Assembly (NCBI GenBank): GCA_963802965.1
Contig: CAWDKS010000008.1
Coordinates: forward strand, 71,790-135,789
Length of the DNA: 64,000 bases
Direction: 5' to 3'
DNA from: an uncultured Verrucomicrobiae bacterium
GTDB lineage: Bacteria; Verrucomicrobiota; Verrucomicrobiia; Limisphaerales; UBA11358
A program made the translations under genes and the position numbers. The notes under the pieces are model-generated. The model was not told the DNA's origin. It did no database searches and saw nothing but the letters and a program-made list of their open reading frames with translations. This document shows positions 1,096 to 51,837 of the stretch, piece by piece (position 1 is the stretch's first letter; every line of letters begins with the position of its first letter).

Positions 1096-1210
1096 CCAAC
1101 CGCGGATAATACGGGGTTCACCCCGGTGTGCCGGTACAAACCTCACCCGCCGGCTAAACGATCACTGCAACTCGGATTTTAACCACGGATGAACACCGAT
1201 TAACACGGAT

Positions 1211-1858
1211 TCAAACCAGTGCCTGTTGAATCCGCCGCACGACTTTGTTCGGCCCGGCCTTTAGCCTTTGGCCTTTCTTGCCGCGCCGAAATCTAATGAA
1301 GGCGGGAGCCTTCAGCCTTGCCAAATCGCATTCCCAAATCCGAATCACGCGCCAGCCGCCCCGCCGCAAAGTGCGGTTCACAAGCCGGTCACGGGTTTTG
1401 TTGCCCGCCAATTTCTTTTTCCAGAAGGCATAATTGTTCCTCGGCTTGGTTGCGTGCCTGGGGCAGCCATGCCAGAAACAGCCGTCCACAAAGATTGCCG
1501 TGCGCGATTTGAGGAAAACAAAATCCGGTTTCACGCGAAAGGTAGGGCGCGTCACTTCCGCCGTCGCCTGGCTATGGCGGGACAGGCCGTGCGCGCCGCG
1601 TTTTGAGGTAGGGACATCGCGCTGCGATGTCCGCGACGCGTGCAGCGTCGCAACCGTTCCAGGCTTGTTCCGGCCCTGCACGGGCCGGTGACGCCGCAGC
1701 GCGGCATCCCTACCACGGATTTCGACATGTCGTCGCCAGCCTTTGATGCCGTGTCGCTTTAACAATTTTGCCAGCGCCAGTTCCGTGTCCTTGTTCCCGC
1801 GCCCGCGAATCCGTGACATGACTTCGGAACGTTTCCGTTTTGAAAAGACATCAGCCAT
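1211..1858 (-). CDS. Vsr-like very-short-patch-repair endonuclease paralog carrying a 59-aa internal insertion and a C-terminal extension
   Basis: N-terminus MADVFSKRKRSEVMSRIRG.. and core KPDFVF..AIFVDGCFWHGCPRHAT..FWKKKL..N..RD align residue-for-residue with the 139-aa Vsr at 3258..3677; extra segment lies between WRRH and KPDFVF. Confidence 0.75.
   Translation of the reverse strand: MADVFSKRKRSEVMSRIRGRGNKDTELALAKLLKRHGIKGWRRHVEIRGRDAALRRHRPVQGRNKPGTVATLHASRTSQRDVPTSKRGAHGLSRHSQATAEVTRPTFRVKPDFVFLKSRTAIFVDGCFWHGCPRHATKPRNNYAFWKKKLAGNKTRDRLVNRTLRRGGWRVIRIWECDLARLKAPAFIRFRRGKKGQRLKAGPNKVVRRIQQALV
1541..1717. repeat. repeat-derived in-frame insertion inside vsr paralog (GGTAGGG..CCCTACC hairpin-type sequences)
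   Basis: Segment absent from paralog 3258..3677; contains ggtagggacatcgcgctgcgatgtcc and gcggcatccctacc, related to ggtaggg-type hairpins at 48815-48866 and 59398-59440; boundaries approximate. Confidence 0.55.
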
Positions 1859-1963
1859 TCAGCCGGTTGAGGGTTGAGGGTTGAAGGTTGAGAGCCTCAG
1901 GCGCGACTTGCTGCGCCTCGGAAACATTGCCTCCTTTACGTCCGACGCAGAAGAGGTTACTTT

Positions 1964-2191
1964 ATGTCCGTTATGATCGTTCCACTCTCGAAAGTGCAGT
2001 TTCGTCGGGATGAAGACGGCGTGTGGATTGCCAAGTCCGCCCTGCTGCCCGGCTGCCACGCGCACGGGCGCGACCGGGGTGAAGCTGCGCTTAGATTCCA
2101 ACAGGCTGCCAAGGCACATCTGGAAGCATTGCTCGAAACCGGACGTCCCATTCCCGCCGCCTTCCGCGACAAATTCGTCCTCGCCGCCTGA
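1964..2191 (+). CDS. hicB: HicB-like antitoxin (UPF0150-type N-domain)
   Basis: DEDGVWIAKSALLPGCHAHGRDRGEAALRFQQAAKAHLEALLE matches the HicB pattern (..W.A..P.LPGC.A.G.T.EEA......A....LE). Confidence 0.65.
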   Translation: MSVMIVPLSKVQFRRDEDGVWIAKSALLPGCHAHGRDRGEAALRFQQAAKAHLEALLETGRPIPAAFRDKFVLAA

Positions 2192-2194
2192 CCT

Positions 2195-2350
2195 GTGGGC
2201 AAATATCCCTCTTGGAACTGCCGTCAGCTTGACCGTCGTCTGCGTGAGATTGGCTGCGAACTCCTTCGCACCACCGGGAGCCACCGGCGTTATCCAGTCC
2301 TACATCGACATCTATCTGGTCAAGTGGTAAAAACTTTGTCGCGTGGCTAA
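2195..2350 (+). CDS. hicA: short HicA-like toxin candidate (51 codons, GTG start; below ORF-track cutoff)
   Basis: My translation: VGKYPSWNCRQLDRRLREIGCELLRTTGSHRRYPVLHRHLSGQVVKTLSRG*; L..LG....R..GSH..Y core is HicA-like; starts 4 nt after hicB stop; shorter than typical HicA. Confidence 0.4.
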   Translation: MGKYPSWNCRQLDRRLREIGCELLRTTGSHRRYPVLHRHLSGQVVKTLSRG

Positions 2351-3236
2351 TGCAGTTTTTACAACGAAAGTAAATCCGGTCTACGATGATCTGCCGGAGA
2401 TTCGTTACCACTTTCCTTCGACATATCTTAATCAGGCCAAACAAGCAGTGGGGAATTTGATTGTATATTATGAACCACGGCGTGAAAGCTCGGATCTATC
2501 TGGCCGGGCGGGCCGCCAGTGCTATTTTGCAACTGCACGGGTCGTGAAAATCGAGCCGGACCGGGGAAGGCGCGATCATTACTATGCATACCTGACAGAT
2601 TACCTCGAATTTACAAAACCTGTCCCTTTCAAGGCAGGAAACAACTATCCTGAAGCTGGGCTGCGGAAGGCGGATGGGTCGACAAACAAAGGACGCTTTG
2701 GCCGGTCAATACGGATAATTTCGCCCCAGGAATTTCAAGCGATTTGCCGACTTGGATTTGCAGATGCGGCAAAACCTCCCGAAAAGGAGCAACCCGTTGA
2801 AGCGTTCGCGGAAGAACCGTTGGAATATGGAGGTCCTAGACAGATGCAAATTATGGAGAGACCTTTCCGGGACAGAGTGTTTACTCGTGTGATTCAAGAA
2901 GCATATGATAATACCTGTGCAATGACCGGCCTCAAACTCATCAACGGTGGAGGGCGTTGTGAGATTGAAGCTGCCCATATCAAGCCGGTGGCCGATGACG
3001 GTCCAGATTCACCGCGTAACGGTATCGCACTGTCGCGTACCATCCATTGGATGTTTGACAAACACTTCCTTTCAATTTCGGACTCAGGTAATATCTTAGT
3101 TGCCAAGAAATATGTTCCGGACCCGATTCGCCGTCTGTTAAATCAAGATGGTCAGGTTAAGTTTCCATCTTCCTCGGCATGGCAGCCGCATAAGGTCTTT
3201 TTGCATTACCATCAAAACCTTTTTAAAGGCGACTGA
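2343..3236 (+). CDS. HNH endonuclease with ~170-aa N-terminal domain (putative restriction endonuclease, possibly modification-dependent)
   Basis: C-terminal HNH motif EAAHIKPVADDGPDSPRNGIALSRTIHWMFDKHFLSI; N-terminal YHFPSTYL..VYYEPRR..YFATARV architecture recalled from COG3440-like putative restriction enzymes (from memory). Confidence 0.75.
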   Translation: MANAVFTTKVNPVYDDLPEIRYHFPSTYLNQAKQAVGNLIVYYEPRRESSDLSGRAGRQCYFATARVVKIEPDRGRRDHYYAYLTDYLEFTKPVPFKAGNNYPEAGLRKADGSTNKGRFGRSIRIISPQEFQAICRLGFADAAKPPEKEQPVEAFAEEPLEYGGPRQMQIMERPFRDRVFTRVIQEAYDNTCAMTGLKLINGGGRCEIEAAHIKPVADDGPDSPRNGIALSRTIHWMFDKHFLSISDSGNILVAKKYVPDPIRRLLNQDGQVKFPSSSAWQPHKVFLHYHQNLFKGD

Positions 3237-3257
3237 TTTGTTTTAGAAGCATTCCAT

Positions 3258-3677
3258 TCAGGCCGGCAAGTCGAGGTGGTGACAAATTCGTCGGAGCAAA
3301 CGGGCTTCATTTTTAAGAACCAGTTCATGTTGCCAAATCCTCAATATAGCCCACCCACGTTGTCGGAGCGTGCGGTTCACAATTCGGTCACGGTTCTTGT
3401 TGCGGGCGAGTTTCTTCCGCCAAAACGCTCTGTTGGTTGCTGGCTGTGTCGCGTGTCGAGGGCAACCATGCCAAAAGCAGCCATCCACAAAAATTGCAAG
3501 TTTGATTTTTGGAAAAACGAAATCGGGTTTGCCAAAGACCGATTGGTGACGCCTCCAGCCTGTAAGTTTGTGTCGTCGCAGGACGTTCAAAAGCGCAAGT
3601 TCGGTCCGTTCGTTTCCATGGCCACGCACGCGTGCCATGATGGCGGAACGTTTTGGTTTGGAGAAAACATCAGCCAT
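3258..3677 (-). CDS. vsr: very short patch repair endonuclease Vsr
   Basis: 139 aa; KPDFVFPK..AIFVDGCFWHGCPRHAT..FWRKKL.RN..RD..V...L...GW..LRIW; ATG abuts TAA of upstream exonuclease gene. Confidence 0.9.
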   Translation of the reverse strand: MADVFSKPKRSAIMARVRGHGNERTELALLNVLRRHKLTGWRRHQSVFGKPDFVFPKIKLAIFVDGCFWHGCPRHATQPATNRAFWRKKLARNKNRDRIVNRTLRQRGWAILRIWQHELVLKNEARLLRRICHHLDLPA

Positions 3678-4247
3678 TTATGACGGAAGAACCCCTGTAA
3701 AAACTGGGGTCGGAAGAGTGGTATAGTTTGGCACAAGCTGTTGCCACATTTTAACGACTGCTTCAGCGAGAAGGCCAACGTCTCCGCGAGCGTCATGTCG
3801 TCGGTACCCGGATGTACTCAGACGGAGGCGTTCCAAAACGGCATCCAGACCGTGCCGCCTAGATGATTGCCAGACCTGTTTTGAAAGATTAATCGAATCG
3901 ACATATCCGATCGAACGAGTCGGAAGTTTACTTTTCGAGCACGCTGCACGTATGAAAGGCATATCGAAACGGTGTCCGTTATGAGCAAGAAGGATATTGT
4001 TACCGACAAAATGGGAGAAATCAGCGAGCGCAAAGGATGCCGGCGGCGCATTACAAACATGTCGATCGGAGATGCCGGTGTAAGAAGTAATAAATGATGG
4101 GATTCGACAGCCTGGATTTACGAAGGTGGAGAACGCTTCAGTGTGTGAGATCGCTCCGGATTTCACGCGAACCGCTGCAATCTGAATTATGTCATTCGCG
4201 GTCGGCGAAAGTCCTGTCGTTTCAAGATCGAAGATCACCAAATCCAT
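3678..4247 (-). CDS. DnaQ-like DEDDh 3'-5' exonuclease
   Basis: ExoI FDLETTG, ExoII LLAHNGHRFDMPFI, ExoIII HDARGDV; starts 6 nt after helicase-nuclease stop. Confidence 0.85.
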   Translation of the reverse strand: MDLVIFDLETTGLSPTANDIIQIAAVRVKSGAISHTEAFSTFVNPGCRIPSFITSYTGISDRHVCNAPPASFALADFSHFVGNNILLAHNGHRFDMPFIRAACSKSKLPTRSIGYVDSINLSKQVWQSSRRHGLDAVLERLRLSTSGYRRHDARGDVGLLAEAVVKMWQQLVPNYTTLPTPVFTGVLPS

Positions 4248-4253
4248 ACACTA

Positions 4254-5336
4254 CTACGCTCCCGGCCTCGCCTTTTTGTGGGTGACCGCCTCTTTCTGAC
4301 CGCAGATTCCGACAAAATCACATCTAGGGCATCGATGTTTGCCTTCTGCGTTCGCCTTCGGCCCCACGTTGAATTTGCGGTCCCGGATTTCGGCGGCAGT
4401 CTTCGCAACACGACTTTGCGCAGCCTCAAGGTGAGATTTGTCCAACGGCACGCGAAGTTCTCGTTTCTCATCCTGCTTTGCGTCCAGGTATCGAACCAAC
4501 CCGGCTTCCGGTTCGTATTCCAATTCCTTCTTGGCGGCGAGCGCATAAATCGCCACCTGCAGCTTCATTTCCTCCTCATCCAGCTTCATGTGCTTATCGG
4601 ACTCCGGATCGCCTGACTTAAAATCAACGAGTGTCACCCGAGGAGGATCATCGCGCCGTACAATATCAATTGCGCCTGAAACTAGCGCACCCCCGTCCTT
4701 GTCCGGATACTCGACTAGCGTTTCAAATGATTTTTCTGGCTCGAATGTCAAATCCTTCAATTCTCCGGCGAAGCGTTCGACATAATCTGCAACGACTTGG
4801 ATTCCTTTTTTCCACATGTTTTTTGCCGGGTCACCAGTCGTGTAGCGCAAATAAAAAAGTCCGCGGTCGATCTGCTTTTGAATTTCCGCTTCAAGTATTT
4901 TCCGGTCGTTAGCCAACTCAGCCCAGCGCTGTGGGGCGGAATGAATCGCCCGCATCAAATTATGGATGCCGCGTCCGTAACCGAAAGCCTGGTCAATTGT
5001 CGGCGCGAAGCCCATGACTTTTCTGAGATAAAAATCGTGAGGGCAAGCCAGATAGTAACGGAGATCAGAAAACGAAGTAGCGAGCTGCACGTTTCGCATG
5101 TGTTCCTTGGGCGCGTATTTGAGTTCGCGTAACAGAGCCGCGGAATCATTTGTGACGCGACCACCGGACTCCCCAATTATTTGAGAAAGCCCTGGTATAG
5201 CTGGAGTCGTTCTGGTCTTTTTTACGCCTTGAATGAATCGCGAAACCTTGTTGCCCGAATAACTGACAAAGAGAAACCGTTCTGCGCGCGTAAGAGCAAC
5301 GTACATCAAGCGGCGCTCTCCATCGTGGTTCTCCGT
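4254..5336 (-). pseudogene. UvrD-family helicase-nuclease, C-terminal fragment (helicase motif VI plus Cas4/AddB-type PD-(D/E)XK Fe-S nuclease)
   Basis: GERRLMYVALTRAERFLFVSY (motif VI); nuclease: CPHDFY, GRGIH, AIDIV..LVDFKSG, QVAIYALA, CPRCDFVGIC (4 Cys). Confidence 0.85.
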
Positions 5337-6924
5337 TCGTTTACCCGAATCTCACCCCCCGATTGAACTTGGCGAGGCCGAAGCGGAATGGTGCAAAAAG
5401 GCCGAACTACTTACAGAAGTTGGTACTTCGGATGAAACGAAGGCGTTCGCCGTCTCCGCCGCCCGCTACTACGCGTATTTGCGCTGCCGCCGATTTCTGG
5501 ATTTTAGCACGTCACAGGGAGAGTTCATCCGCCGCCTGGAGGCCGACAAAGAAAAGCGGAAGGAATTGCAGAAATCAAATATTCATCTCGTTGTTGACGA
5601 AGTACAAGATATCAACCCGATTCAAATGCAACTCATCCGTCTTTTAACCGATGAATCAGGCAAGCTCACATCCGTCGGCGACCATCGGCAGTCAATTTAC
5701 GGCTTTCGCGGCGCCAAGGTGGAGTTGATCGCCGAACTGTGGGAAGAATTCAAAAAGGACAAGGACGCCGAAGTTGTTGATTTGCAGGAAAACTTCCGCT
5801 CCACGGGACGGGTCATTGATGTTGCGAACAAATGGGCGGAAACAATTGGAACGGTCGGGGCGATGGAAACGCTCGGGATGAAACATGGAAACAAACATCG
5901 GACGGATCACCACCCTTCGCATGTCGCGTTGATAGGTTTCGACGAACGCGTTGATGAAGCACGGTGGATTTCAGAAGCCATTCGCGAAATCGTCCCGACC
6001 GAGGCGCAAGGAGCGCTGCACGATAAGCGCGACGGTAAATATCGCGGCCTAACTCTTTCTGATGTCGCCATTTTGGTTCGTTCATCCACGGACGTTCGGA
6101 CATATATGCGAGTTCTGGAGGAAGCAGGCATCCCCTCAATTGTCCGGGCAGGCCCGGACCTTTTTTCACAGCCTGAAGTTCTGTTTTTCATCGGCGCAAT
6201 TGGCATCACTGCAGGCGTTGACGAATTTTGGGGCTCAAGCATTGGCAATAAAAGTCTACCAAAACGAATCGAAGCTGTTCTCGAATGTGCGCCCGCGCCA
6301 GAAACTGTTCTTCGCGCAGCGGCCAGACAACTGCGAAAATCCCAACTGTCAGTGAGTCGCGAGGTGGAAGATAGAACAGTTCTGGCCGCCTCGATGATTC
6401 GCGATCGAATCGGCGGTAAATCATTCCACCAAAGCCAAACCAAGATTTTGAGAACGGAAGGCCTGCGAGATTTTCTTGAACGGAAACCGGAACTGCGCCG
6501 GCTTTTTCCGCAGCAACTTTTTCATTGGTTGCTTTCGGAAGCGGAAGTGGAAAACTGGGACACGTGCGAAGGTCGCGGGCAGGCGGCAATGTTTCATCTT
6601 GGCGCTTTGAGTGGACTCATCACCGGAATCGAGACGCCCGGCTGGACAAATACGAAGTCCTACAAGTGGCAAGTCATCGGTCTTTGCCAGTATGGCGCAG
6701 AAGATGGCCGCGTGAAGGAGCAGCCGCTCATGGTGCAACCGGAGGCCGTCACCATCAGCACAATCCATGCGGTCAAGGGACTAGAGTTTCCGGCAGTGTT
6801 TCTGGCCGACGTGAAAGCATTACGATTTCCTAGCAGCATGGCCACTCGTGGAGTAAATCTTCCCCTTGGACTAAAGATTTCGAAAGAAATCAATATAGAT
6901 GGCCTTTCCGATAATGAGAAACGA
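5337..6924 (+). pseudogene. same helicase gene, central fragment (motifs II-V) in inverted orientation
   Basis: Read on the plus strand: LVVDEVQDINPIQ (II), GDHRQSIYGFRGA (III), ENFRSTGRVI (IV), TISTIHAVKGLEFPAVFLADV (V); bounded by TCGTTT 5337-5342 / AAACGA 6919-6924. Confidence 0.85.
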
Positions 6925-7457
6925 TTGTGTTCTTGAAGTTGATCGTAGGCTTGTGTGAACTGCTCAAAGGTCTCCCCCTGGCCAGCATCGGAACCGTTAT
7001 TGTGTTTCGGCAATGCGGCACGCAAAGCATTCAACGCCAGCAGCCCATTGAATCCTCGGAGTATCAACGCCGCCCGCGCGCCCTCGTCCAAAATGTCGTA
7101 GTTGTGATAATCGTCGGGCCAAAACTCCCTGATCTTGGCTAGACAGTAACCGTGGATCGTGCCGATATACATCCCACCGAGAGAAACATCTTCTCCTGCT
7201 GGAGTAACTTTACCGATCCAAGAGCGGATACGGAATTTCATTTCCTCCGCGGCACGTTCGGTGAACGTAAAGGCCACAATTTGGTCCTTTTCCACCTTCT
7301 CGACACCGACCCACCAAGCAATCCTGCGCGCCATTACTTCGGTTTTGCCAGATCCAGCGCCCGCAACCACTAATACGCGGCGTTTTGATGACTGAATAGC
7401 CAGTTTTTGATTCTTCGTCAGGTTATCATCAAGCAGTATTTCTTGAATCCTCGGCAT
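6925..7457 (-). pseudogene. same helicase gene, N-terminal fragment (motifs Q, I, Ia)
   Basis: MPRIQEILLDDNLTKNQKLAI.., VLVVAGAGSGKTEVM (I), AFTFTERAAEEM (Ia), GTIHGYC; AAGGA SD 13 nt after MTase stop. Confidence 0.85.
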
Positions 7458-7470
7458 ACAGTCCTTTCGA

Positions 7471-8490
7471 TTAACCCACGAATTTCCGAATCTGCCTAGC
7501 TTGTCTTCGGATGAACTCCGGCGGCAGCGCATTGCCTATCATTTGTGCGGTGGGAAACTTTCCGCGTGCGAGTGAGAAGAAATAATTTGGCGGAAAAGTC
7601 TGGAGTAGCGCTGCCTCGCGGAGCGTGATGGTGCGATTTTTTGTCGGATGTAAGAATCGGCCCTTTGACGGATTTACACAACCGCCCGTTATCGTCGGTG
7701 AAACGTCATCCCATGACATACGACCATAAACGTCTTTGAATCCGTCACATCTTCGGTGACAATCGAGCTGGTGCCTCGCACCCATATCAAGCCGACTGCC
7801 GCCGTTCTTTGGGATGCGCTGGATGAGTTGCTTCACTTTCTTACTCCGCGACTCCGGCAGATTGTGCAGCGGGTCGCGTCGCGAAAAACGCTTGGTCAGT
7901 TTGGCAAACGTTTCACGCACGGTTCGGACACGGCGAGCAGCAGTTCCGAAGGGGATTTCCGCGCCTTGACCCGCCAGGAGAATGAAACGGCGTCGGCGTT
8001 GTGGTACGCCATAGTGCCGGGCGTCTTTGACCGCAGCATTTACCGTGTAGCCAAGCTGCTTCAATGCAGCCTTAAATTTTGGCAAACGGGCGTTGTCCGC
8101 CAAACCTGGCACATTCTCCATCATAACTGCTTTGGGACGAAGGCCTCGAATCAGACGGAGAAAATCGAAAACCAAGTCGTTTTGCTCGTCCCGCACACGG
8201 CGTGCGCCGTTAAGTCGTCGCATAGCGCTGAACCCCTGACACGGCGGACAGCCAGCCAAGAGGTCGAGGTCTCCGCGATTGAAGCCAAGTGCCTTTAGAA
8301 TTTGGGGCGTTGTGAGTTTACGGATGTCTTGCCGCCAAAGATAAACCTCGGAATGATTTACGCTGTAGGTGTCCGCTGCCAGCGAATCAATTTCCACTGC
8401 ACCAACAACTTTAAATCCAGCGCGCTTGAGACCCAACGTCAGGCCGCCACAACCCGAAAACAAATCTATGGCTCTTGGTTTCTTCTTCAC
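7471..8490 (-). CDS. dcm: DNA (cytosine-5) methyltransferase
   Basis: Motif I DLFSGCGG, IV GCPPCQGFS, VI MENVPGL, VIII QRRRRFIL, X GNALPPEF; GTG start overlaps upstream stop (GTGA). Confidence 0.92.
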   Translation of the reverse strand: MKKKPRAIDLFSGCGGLTLGLKRAGFKVVGAVEIDSLAADTYSVNHSEVYLWRQDIRKLTTPQILKALGFNRGDLDLLAGCPPCQGFSAMRRLNGARRVRDEQNDLVFDFLRLIRGLRPKAVMMENVPGLADNARLPKFKAALKQLGYTVNAAVKDARHYGVPQRRRRFILLAGQGAEIPFGTAARRVRTVRETFAKLTKRFSRRDPLHNLPESRSKKVKQLIQRIPKNGGSRLDMGARHQLDCHRRCDGFKDVYGRMSWDDVSPTITGGCVNPSKGRFLHPTKNRTITLREAALLQTFPPNYFFSLARGKFPTAQMIGNALPPEFIRRQARQIRKFVG

Positions 8491-8714
8491 ACGTCCACTC
8501 TTTTGCAGAGTTCCGAGATGGAAATCTTGAGAGCCTTGGCAATACGGGCAACGTTTTTGATGCCGGGGTTACGTTTTCCGCATTCGATGCCGCTGATGTA
8601 GGTCTGGTCGAGGTCGGACTTTTCGGCGAGCAATTCCTGTGAAAAATCCAATTTTTCACGACGCCGACGAACGTTTCGCCCTAGAGCCATCAAAACAGGA
8701 TGTCGTTTTGGCAT
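8487..8714 (-). CDS. XRE-family HTH regulator (controller/C-protein-like)
   Basis: 75 aa; LGRNVRRRREKLDFSQELLAEKSDLDQTYISGIECGKRNPGIKNVARIAKAL; first gene of the MTase operon. Confidence 0.8.
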   Translation of the reverse strand: MPKRHPVLMALGRNVRRRREKLDFSQELLAEKSDLDQTYISGIECGKRNPGIKNVARIAKALKISISELCKRVDV

Positions 8715-8719
8715 GACTC

Positions 8720-8757
8720 ATAGTCTATAGGCGCGTCCAAAAATAATTATGGACTAT
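8720..8757 (-). promoter_or_regulatory. candidate operator (C-box-like nested inverted repeats) just upstream of the HTH gene
   Basis: ATAGTC (8720-8725)/GACTAT (8752-8757) and GTCCA (8735-8739)/TGGAC (8750-8754) in an AT-rich leader. Confidence 0.3.
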
Positions 8758-8801
8758 CAGTAATAATCGGCGGGCAAGCAAAGAGGCTTATGGAGTATCA
8801 G

Positions 8802-9035
8802 TCAGGTTGTTTCTGCACGCGGTTTTTTGCCCAAAGCATCGAGCCGTTGATACCGTTTTTCTTCCAGTTCCTTTTCCTCGCGGTTTAAATCCGCCATCCA
8901 TTCGGCGAACGGCTTGTCGCCGGGCTCGCGTTTGAACACGCCGCGAAACGAATGAATGAGCTTCCGCATTTCTTCCGTCTTCATCTGATTCCGACGCGAC
9001 GAGTCCGGCGACAGTTTCTTCTTCCGGCGAGGCAT
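8802..9035 (-). CDS. hypothetical protein (charged, helical)
   Basis: ORF 8802..9050, likely start MPRRKKK at 9035; no family recognised. Confidence 0.35.
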   Translation of the reverse strand: MPRRKKKLSPDSSRRNQMKTEEMRKLIHSFRGVFKREPGDKPFAEWMADLNREEKELEEKRYQRLDALGKKPRAETT

Positions 9036-9316
9036 GGCGCGATATTGCACCCGTCAAGAACGGGAGACCAGAGGATTTTGGACATGCCATTTTGCGCGCC
9101 CGGCGTCTGTGGACTATCGGCTACAATCTGAGCGAAGCGAAGACCAGCCTTCGCTCAGAGGCTTCGGCACGGCAGGTGGAAGATCGAGGATGGCGGATGG
9201 CCGCGCAGCAGCACGGCCCTACCACGCACAGAAGAAAATTTGCGGTCATCCATCCTTCGTTTAGAAACTATGGAGGACAGGTCGGCGTCATCTGCGGGGG
9301 AATGGCGGTCGAGGCT

Positions 9317-50229: not shown

Positions 50230-50730
50230 TTCAACCGCCCAGCGAACCCGGATTCCCCACGTCGCCCTTGTTGAAATCCACATATTCCTCCGTCAAATCG
50301 GCGGCGTAAATTACTGCGCCGGCTTTGCCGAGGTTCAGGCGGATGTGCAAATCAAATTCCTTCGGCGCCACAGCGATACAAAGCTGTTTGAACGTCGCCT
50401 GGGTCGGCTGGCCGCGCTTGAGGCTCCAGAGAATTTTTTTACCGCCAGCTACGCTGTAGCCGATGTCCACCTTTTCTTCGACAATTTTTGCCGGTGAATA
50501 GCCGAGCGCGTCAATGATGCGGCCCCAGTTCGGGTCGCCGCCGTGCCAACTCGTTTTCACGAGCGGACTGTTCGCCACCGCCCGCGCCGCGGCATCGGCA
50601 TCGGCAACAGATTTCGCACCGTTCACGCGCACCGTCACGACGCGATGAACCCCTTCGCCGTCGCGCACGATCATTTTCGCCAGCTCCAGGCAGACGTGAT
50701 TCAAAGCCGTTTGAAAAACTCCAAGGTCTT

Positions 50731-50797
50731 GTAGGAGCCGACGTGAGGAGGCTCTAACTTTTTTTGAAGAAGTGAGACTCGTTACCTCGTCTCCTAC
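50731..50797. repeat. family-A variant element inside argJ
   Basis: gtaggagccgacgtgaggaggctc...gagactcgttacctcgtctcctac; same family as 63591-63672 and 43688-43759. Confidence 0.75.
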
Positions 50798-50972
50798 CAT
50801 TGGCGGGTTTCCCGCCAGCCCGTTCGCCAGGACCAGCACCGTGTCGTTCGTGCTCATGTCGCCGTCCACGGTAATGCGATTGAAACTCTGCGCGACGGCT
50901 TCCTGCAAAGCGGCCTGCAAAGTTTTTGCCTCAATCGCCGCATCGGTGGTGATGAAACACAAGCATGGTTGC

Positions 50973-51035
50973 GTGAAGCGTTGAAGCGTTGAAGCGTTGA
51001 AGCGGCAGCGCCGCCGGTCGTGCGCCGGTGGCGGA
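50973..51035. repeat. 63-bp insertion inside argJ containing an 8-bp tandem repeat (TGAAGCGT x3)
   Basis: gtgaagcgttgaagcgttgaagcgttgaagcggcagcgccgccggtcgtgcgccggtggcgga; encodes SATGARPAALPLQRFNASTLH just before the ATML motif. Confidence 0.6.
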
Positions 51036-51293
51036 CATTCCCGGCTGAATCATGCCCGCGCCCTTGCAAATGCCGCCGATGCGGACGGTTTTGCCGCCCA
51101 GCTTGAATTCGATGCTGATTTGTTTGGGCCGCGTGTCGCTCGTCATGATGGCTTCGACGGCGTGGGCTGCGTGACGCGATGAATTTCCAAGCACCTTTGC
51201 CGCCTCCAAAATTCCACGTTTGACGTTTCCCATCGGCAGGGTGACGCCGATGCGCCCGGTCGAGCCGACCAGGACATGTTCCGCGGGAATTTT

Positions 51294-51352
51294 TGGGAGG
51301 GACAGCGTGCCGCTGTCCCTGATTTTTGGGACGGCAACATGCCGTCCCTCCC
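51294..51352. repeat. family-B element inside argJ
   Basis: tgggagggacagcgtgccgctgtccct..gggacggcaacatgccgtccctccc; encodes REGRHVAVPKIRDSGTLSLPKIP on the minus strand. Confidence 0.75.
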
Positions 51353-51837
51353 GGGAAATTGCCTTGGCGGCAATTTCTGTCATTTCGCGCGCGTCCTGCA
51401 ATCCTTGTTTGCCGGTGCAGGCGTTGGCATTGCCGGAATTAACGACGATGGCCTGTGCGATTCCCTTTTTCACGCGTTCGACGCAAACCTTCACCGGTGC
51501 GGCACAGACCTGATTGGTCGTGAACATGCCGGCGACGGTTGCGGGCACTTCGGAAACAATCAGCGCGAGGTCGCGCTTCCGGCCCTTGTCCGAGCCTTTG
51601 CCCGTGCCGAGCCGTTTGATGTCGCAAAAAACGCCGCTGGCCAGAAAACCTTTTGGCGCGACGATGGAACCGGGAATTTCTTTGAACAATTTCATTTTCA
51701 GAAATTGATTGAACCACGAAACACACGCAATGACACGAAAATCAGACACAGATTCCATGGATTTTCGCCGATTGAATCCCTGTTAATCCGTGAAATTCGT
51801 GTCAAAAGGTTTTTTGTGTGGTTCGTATATTTCGTGA

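Follow-up and report, generated by a model that had tools for sequence, protein, structure and literature searches.

Why does the middle of a helicase gene lie on the opposite strand from its own two ends? In the 64,000-nucleotide stretch of DNA analyzed here (the window), ORF listing and direct translation place the ~1.59-kb center of a UvrD-Cas4-type helicase-nuclease gene on the plus strand, with both termini on the minus strand. The initial annotation offered an inactivating inversion, an ON/OFF switch, or a misassembly as possible explanations. Translation of both strands bore out its claim that the center is inverted relative to the gene's own ends, and the coordinates of all seven quoted superfamily 1 (SF1) helicase motifs, split between strands as described, were verified (Table 1). 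Read on the minus strand from 7457 to 4254, the gene as assembled contains 10 internal stops (11 with the terminal stop), and its N-terminal piece runs into antisense sequence with a stop at 6660-6662. Because motifs I and Ia, motifs II to V, and motif VI with the nuclease alternate between strands, no functional helicase-nuclease can be made, in agreement with the earlier description of a gene in three pieces. Only when 5329..6920 is restored do motifs I to VI become collinear in one polypeptide, encoded by 1,067 codons on the minus strand (7457->4254). The restored protein matches Pfam UvrD-helicase (4.4e-51), UvrD_C (2e-31), and PDDEXK_1 (2.2e-26), shows weak matches to Cas_Cas4 and TIGR00372, and carries a four-Cys cluster in its nuclease (the Cys in YYLACPHDF plus CPRCDFVGIC). 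The sense strand of the helicase coding sequence also contains a strong hairpin and, right after it, a run of T, resembling a terminator (GTCCGGGCAGGCCCGGAC CTTTTTT; window 6142-6169, plus strand); a promoter and terminator scan showed no enrichment over shuffles.

Table 1. Coordinates of the disrupted helicase-nuclease gene, its junctions, and the neighboring genes (window positions)
Feature	Position	Strand	Evidence or remark
SF1 motif I	7370-7341	-	coordinates verified
SF1 motif Ia	7271-7248	-	coordinates verified
SF1 motif II	5590-5610	+	coordinates verified
SF1 motif III	5677-5715	+	coordinates verified
SF1 motif IV	5791-5802	+	coordinates verified
SF1 motif V	6760-6801	+	coordinates verified
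SF1 motif VI	5303-5259	-	coordinates verified; Cys-rich PD-(D/E)XK nuclease on same strand
N-terminal piece, residues 1-181, motifs I and Ia	6916..7457	-	L002 100% identical over 6916..8607
Inverted central segment, 1,582 bp between arms, residues ~182-708, motifs II, III, IV, V	5334..6915	+	L044 6244-7844 aligns to window 5327->6925, sense opposite to both flanks
C-terminal piece, residues 709-1067, motif VI and Cas4-like PD-(D/E)XK nuclease, C...CxxCxxxxxC	4254..5333	-	L001 positions 1-1077 translate to these residues, 100% identity
Left arm TTCTC, codons F180-S181 of restored gene	5329-5333	.	protein and DNA alignment; L001 ends exactly at 5333
Right arm GAGAA, codons E709-N710 of restored gene	6916-6920	.	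protein and DNA alignment; L002 ends exactly at 6916
TCGTTT of initial annotation	5337-5342	.	chance repeat, no breakpoint
AAACGA of initial annotation	6919-6924	.	chance repeat, no breakpoint; 2-bp overlap with true arm
Inverted left junction sequence			AGCGGCGCTCTCCATCGTGGTTCTCCGTTCGTTTACCCGAATCTC
Inverted right junction sequence			TAGATGGCCTTTCCGATAATGAGAAACGATTGTGTTCTTGAAGTT
Collinear left junction sequence			AGCGGCGCTCTCCATCGTGGTTCTCATTATCGGAAAGGCCATCTA
Collinear right junction sequence			GAGATTCGGGTAAACGAACGGAGAAACGATTGTGTTCTTGAAGTT
HTH controller (C-protein-like); stop overlaps Dcm start	8487..8714	-	Pfam HTH_3; PADLOC Control_protein E 3.4e-19
Dcm-type C-5 cytosine DNA methyltransferase, intact, directly upstream in operon	7471..8490	-	Pfam PF00145 E 2.6e-60; PADLOC MTase_II
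DEDDh (DnaQ-like) 3'-5' exonuclease, intact, directly downstream	3678..4247	-	Pfam RNase_T E 1.7e-30; PADLOC DEDDh
Vsr very-short-patch repair endonuclease, intact, last cassette gene	3258..3677	-	Pfam Vsr E 1.1e-17; position conserved in relatives
HNH_2 endonuclease, C-terminal half resembling phosphorothioate-DNA restriction enzymes, island	2343-3236
Vsr-like gene with N-terminal extension, island	1211-1858

The inverted segment had been assigned breakpoints at a 6-bp inverted repeat, TCGTTT/AAACGA. Both hexamers are present in the sequence; alignment to 20 collinear homologues instead puts the exchange at TTCTC/GAGAA, whose arms lie 8 bp further left and, on the right, 4 bp further in. Flipping 5337..6924 does yield the predicted single 3,204-nt ORF of 1,067 codons, but the product is gapped against the homologues at both junctions, and we rejected these breakpoints. 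Compared with the 20 homologues, it shows a 4-residue deletion at junction A, where the homologues read QEHN-RFSV-RLPES and RFSV is missing, and a 4-residue insertion at junction B, where three residues are extra and a fourth is substituted (DNEKRTENHDG versus DNENHDG). At the latter junction, homologues read GLSDN-ENHDG and the flipped sequence reads GLSDNEKRTENHDG; the predicted junction peptides are thus out of line with collinear homologues on both sides. Nor is the hexamer codon-aligned in all three pieces, as had been stated, since an N codon spans 6924-6926. A continuous ORF fails as proof of position: 967 of 6,400 nearby breakpoint pairs also produce one, and therefore the ORF criterion alone cannot locate the breakpoints. 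Within ±35-bp windows around the junctions, one 6-bp inverted pair was seen and about 1.2 are expected by chance.

Flipping 5329..6920 gives the junction peptides ..QEHNRFSVRLPES.. and ..GLSDNENHDGERR.. and a product that aligns without gaps to its closest relative, P0001 (94.1% identical over 1,067 aa), and is gap-free at both junctions against 19 further collinear homologues. At the DNA level, blastn against the collinear relative L044 (90.7% protein identity) returns three blocks with switch points at 5327-5333 and 6918-6925. The plus strand from 5329 reads F-S-V-R-L-P-E-S and the minus strand from 5333 downward reads E-N-H-D-G; the two readings share TTCTC, with the mirror case at GAGAA, and this overlap accounts for the residues missing from and added to the product of the earlier flip. 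The 5-bp repeat exists only because Phe-Ser (TTC TCC) and Glu-Asn (GAG AAC) codons happen to be reverse complements. Protein alignment, DNA alignment, and the ends of independently assembled contigs (below) all place this short inverted microhomology at both breakpoints, and microhomology of at least 5 bp would arise at random breakpoints with a probability of about 0.005. The inversion is conservative, with 0 bases lost or gained. Similarity stops at the edges of the 5-bp arms, the junctions lack any long inverted repeat, and the 25 longest inverted pairs within 4000-8600 all lie elsewhere. Junction B lies between motifs V and VI, off any domain boundary.

The disrupted gene has both the architecture of the UvrD-Cas4-like fusions (PF00580, PF13361, and PF12705) and their Dcm/HTH/Vsr neighborhood. 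Fusions of UvrD with a Cas4-like domain (PF12705) in this context have a predicted defense role (Hudaiberdiev et al. 2017, PMC5704561). The window gene shares with those described the order of SF1 UvrD helicase followed by Cas4-like PD-(D/E)XK nuclease, as well as the neighbors Dcm, HTH protein, and Vsr. It differs from them (PMC5704561) in being broken by an internal inversion and in belonging to a sub-branch (window, L012, and L044) that adds a DEDDh exonuclease between the helicase-nuclease and Vsr. The restored protein is far from canonical UvrD, PcrA, Rep, AddA, and RecB (best NCBIfam score, 202 bits against a cut-off of 965; 17/17 matches far below cut-offs); PADLOC returned only generic GajB/UvrD-type matches, and a plasmid search with the protein gave no match. 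The core of Dcm, helicase-nuclease, and Vsr is shared by 14 of the 21 long related loci, which come from Verrucomicrobiota, NC10, Actinomycetota, and other groups. A role for the family in defense or ancillary repair is predicted, and processing of Vsr nicks is a possible alternative. In the window, the cassette sits within a defense/repair island (~1200-9100) between cytochrome c genes (14-634; 9593 onward). When L044:4525-10828 is compared with window 2338-8642, nucleotide identity is mosaic: it reaches 87% in the central helicase segment but only 78% toward the nuclease and exonuclease and 71.5% toward the N-terminus and Dcm. Uneven constraint or past recombination between cassettes could be the cause.

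We next examined relatives for the same disruption. Thousands of relatives matched the flipped protein; among the best 120 listed, nearly all are full-length (956-1,088 aa), and the closest, P0001, is 93-94% identical, collinear, and exactly 1,067 aa long. Across 42 related loci (L044, 7 from genomes, and 34 from metagenomes), not one has its central piece on the other strand. The inverted state is likewise absent from 116 short proteins, and a search with the as-assembled chimeric N-terminal ORF yielded no protein with the same antisense tail. One long alignment extending into the antisense tail (P0254) was spurious. At the same site in relatives, the arms match over 5 bp in L010 (TTTTC/GAAAA) and L011, over 4 bp in L012, and over at most 3 bp in L003, L013, and L044. 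The 5-bp repeat thus derives from conserved codons, shifts with wobble bases, and is unconserved as DNA.

The broken gene shows no sign of decay. None of its three pieces contains a stop or frameshift, and relative-rate counts with nine outgroups gave 18-28 window-specific substitutions versus 17-26 specific to P0001. At otherwise invariant columns the window has 4 private changes, a count exceeded by all but one of ten intact relatives. This absence of decay means that the inversion is either very recent or reversible.

In relatives, many short N-terminal fragments stop around residues 175-200, as though at a hot spot; this pattern was rejected as evidence of inversion, the fragments being products of same-strand frameshifts in long-read assemblies. 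L045:1690-1830 carries a same-strand frameshift at residue ~190-195; in L046:6001-9189 the gene is shattered into at least five same-strand ORFs, and a neighboring gene is split too. Fragmentation of this type looks like the indel noise of long-read assemblies and not recurrent inversion. In the window, a run of six C (5355-5360) lies in the conserved Pro-Pro region where the relatives' fragments end. One metagenome contig from JGI (L036:1420-1501), whose lineage is 76% identical, also stops at the position of junction A, on the codon for Phe-180. The fetched loci have 16 contig ends within the gene, so that a single coincidence of this kind has a probability of about 0.09, and it is probably due to chance.

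Does the inverted form stand alone in the sequenced community? Exact-sequence look-up of the neighboring exonuclease and methyltransferase proteins retrieved two Logan contigs from run ERR11718638, which may hold the same reads as the source assembly and, if so, represents a second assembler rather than a second sample. Both are 100% identical to the window: L001 corresponds to 2177..5333 and L002 to 6916..8607. Their ends at 5333 and 6916 are the inner edges of the two arms, facing the invertible segment. Two unrelated random breaks on exactly these two bases would have a probability on the order of 1e-6 or less. A contig of a k=31 de Bruijn assembly ends where two continuations lie beyond or where junction k-mers fall under the abundance threshold; under either cause, the junctions are supported less uniformly than the flanks. 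We infer from this indirect evidence, assuming a second continuation, that a second arrangement is present in the ERR11718638 reads, most simply the collinear one. The inverted allele thus appears to coexist in the sequenced community with another arrangement, most simply the ancestral collinear form, and such coexistence would make the inverted variant a young polymorphism.

Against this reading, a collinear allele with 100% identity is missing from the record; the nearest are P0001, at 94%, and P0247, at 96% over the C-terminal 400 aa. Exact look-up of seven possible partial products of a central-segment contig of ERR11718638 gave no match, a result that is uninformative because the known products of L001 and L002 are equally unindexed. 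Neighboring window proteins looked up to size the Logan contigs were not on record, and a literature search on the run accession ERR11718638 found no paper. The outer ends of L001 and L002 (window 2177 and 8607) lie upstream of the HNH_2 gene and inside the HTH gene, respectively, and could reflect coverage drop-outs or further strain variation.

The rest of the window is ordinary chromosome, with cytochrome c genes, hemA, mutL, LPS glycosyltransferases, trpC, pdxA, ilvC, argJ, and argC. Of these, argJ (50231-51758, minus strand) is broken in two: its ORFs overlap on the same strand, one matching Pfam ArgJ positions 10-167 and the other 170-372. At the split, GCA ACC ATG CTT G TGT TTC ATC ACC ACC GAT, a single surplus base interrupts the ATML/CFITTDA autocleavage motif, and three tandem copies of the 8-bp repeat CTTCAACG directly precede it. 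The surplus base may be a sequencing indel, or the gene a true pseudogene.

Taken together, these observations are best explained by a real, recent, conservative microhomology-mediated inversion that is still polymorphic and inactivates the helicase-nuclease in a Dcm-Vsr cassette, a reading to which we assign a probability of roughly 0.68. Of the three explanations in the initial annotation, the inactivating microhomology-mediated inversion is thus the best supported, although the microhomology named for it was the wrong one. Mechanistically, this would be a one-off 1.59-kb inversion with the exchange inside TTCTC (5329-5333)/GAGAA (6916-6920), arising when replication switched template twice at the repeat or when an illegitimate, reciprocal exchange occurred there; the conservative outcome would fit both. 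Illegitimate inversions between short inverted repeats, through template switching or RecA-independent exchange, are known from studies of the E. coli lac region. The event described here is like them in its short inverted microhomology at both junctions and in being conservative, sporadic, and gene-inactivating; it differs in that its arms are at the short end of the range described and in that it comes from an uncultured natural population, apparently still beside its parent allele.

A programmed reversible ON/OFF switch, in which a recombinase encoded outside the window toggles the helicase-nuclease as a premature-stop intragenic inverton, would likewise be expected to leave intact pieces without decay and two coexisting arrangements, and the flip is perfectly conservative. 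The host cassette is also methyltransferase-linked and of defense type, and such cassettes are known for phase variation. Intragenic invertons have been documented with an inverted-repeat finder, the validated thiC example having 11-bp arms (Chanin et al., 10.1101/2023.03.11.532203). Like the premature-stop members of that set (10.1101/2023.03.11.532203), the segment studied here is wholly intra-CDS, has inverted-repeat flanks, yields a truncated product, and, to judge indirectly from the contig ends, apparently occurs in both orientations. Its arms, however, are 5 bp without flanking similarity, as opposed to 11 bp in thiC and the length of about 10 bp or more that recombinase sites would need; they come from conserved codons, vary with wobble bases among relatives, and are unaccompanied by any recurrence of the inverted state in the 42 loci or the 116 short proteins. 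The 1.6-kb segment also cuts through the helicase domain, with junctions in domain 2A, and with junction B between motifs V and VI neither orientation gives a sensible alternative protein. A Pfam scan of about 46 ORFs across the 64-kb window found no recombinase domain; a recombinase elsewhere in the genome is possible. In Type I hsdS shufflons, specificity domains are shuffled between duplicated hsdS copies via long repeats by an adjacent dedicated tyrosine recombinase. There, as here, DNA inversion alters the output of a methyltransferase-linked system, but the duplicated copies, the long repeats, and the adjacent recombinase are all absent from our locus. Apart from the indirect sign of two coexisting arrangements, no tested feature of a switch was found, and we consider this part of the earlier proposal unlikely. 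Reversible switching with 5-bp arms, whether by an unknown recombinase that needs only a minimal core site or by a flip that is unusually efficient without any recombinase, is quite unlikely; if it took place, cells could turn off a risky nuclease and keep the methyltransferase.

Two further readings deny that the inverted form is both real and recent. Amplification chimeras are typically inverted and joined at short microhomologies, and chimeric molecules of this sort (e.g., from strand switching during whole-genome amplification) or an assembler error could have produced the inverted path from a genome that is in fact collinear. The uneven junction k-mer support suggested by the Logan contig breaks would be compatible with such an artifact, and the argJ frameshift marks at least one probable indel error in an assembly that is not flawless. 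However, an in-place inversion requires two reciprocal junctions at one repeat pair, whereas a single chimera supplies one; assemblers work with k-mers or overlaps far longer than 5 bp, and a repeat of that size cannot cause mis-orientation; the inverted path was chosen through both junctions of the 234,662-bp source contig, implying read support at both; and the second assembly breaks at exactly these junctions. Misassembly, which the initial annotation had listed, is for these reasons improbable. An old, fixed pseudogene, left by an ancient inversion in a lineage where the gene is dead, is the least credible of the readings. The gene is indeed disrupted, and family relatives are often fragmented in assemblies, but that fragmentation is same-strand frameshifting in long-read assemblies, no piece of the window gene has a stop, a frameshift, or excess substitution, and the Logan breaks at both junctions argue against a fixed inverted form.

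The locus does not represent a new kind of system, as the gene family and its Dcm/Vsr context have been described; it is a new instance of a known event type in a known but uncharacterized gene family. For annotation, the three fragments in the source record should be treated as one disrupted gene. Locating the breakpoints of such an event requires alignment to homologues, as flipping the segment in place is insufficient by itself, and the contig ends of an independent de Bruijn assembly can expose structural heterogeneity even without reads. For the organism, the helicase-nuclease is the one component that the inversion takes out of the cassette; upstream, the methyltransferase is left intact, as are the exonuclease and Vsr on the downstream side. 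The inverted variant may be favored because a costly or self-damaging defense or repair component is thereby lost. The window thus offers a clean natural case, resolved to the base, in which a defense-type gene has been disabled by conservative inversion between 5-bp stretches of microhomology, apparently at a stage when two arrangements, presumably those of the parent and the derived allele, are both still present.
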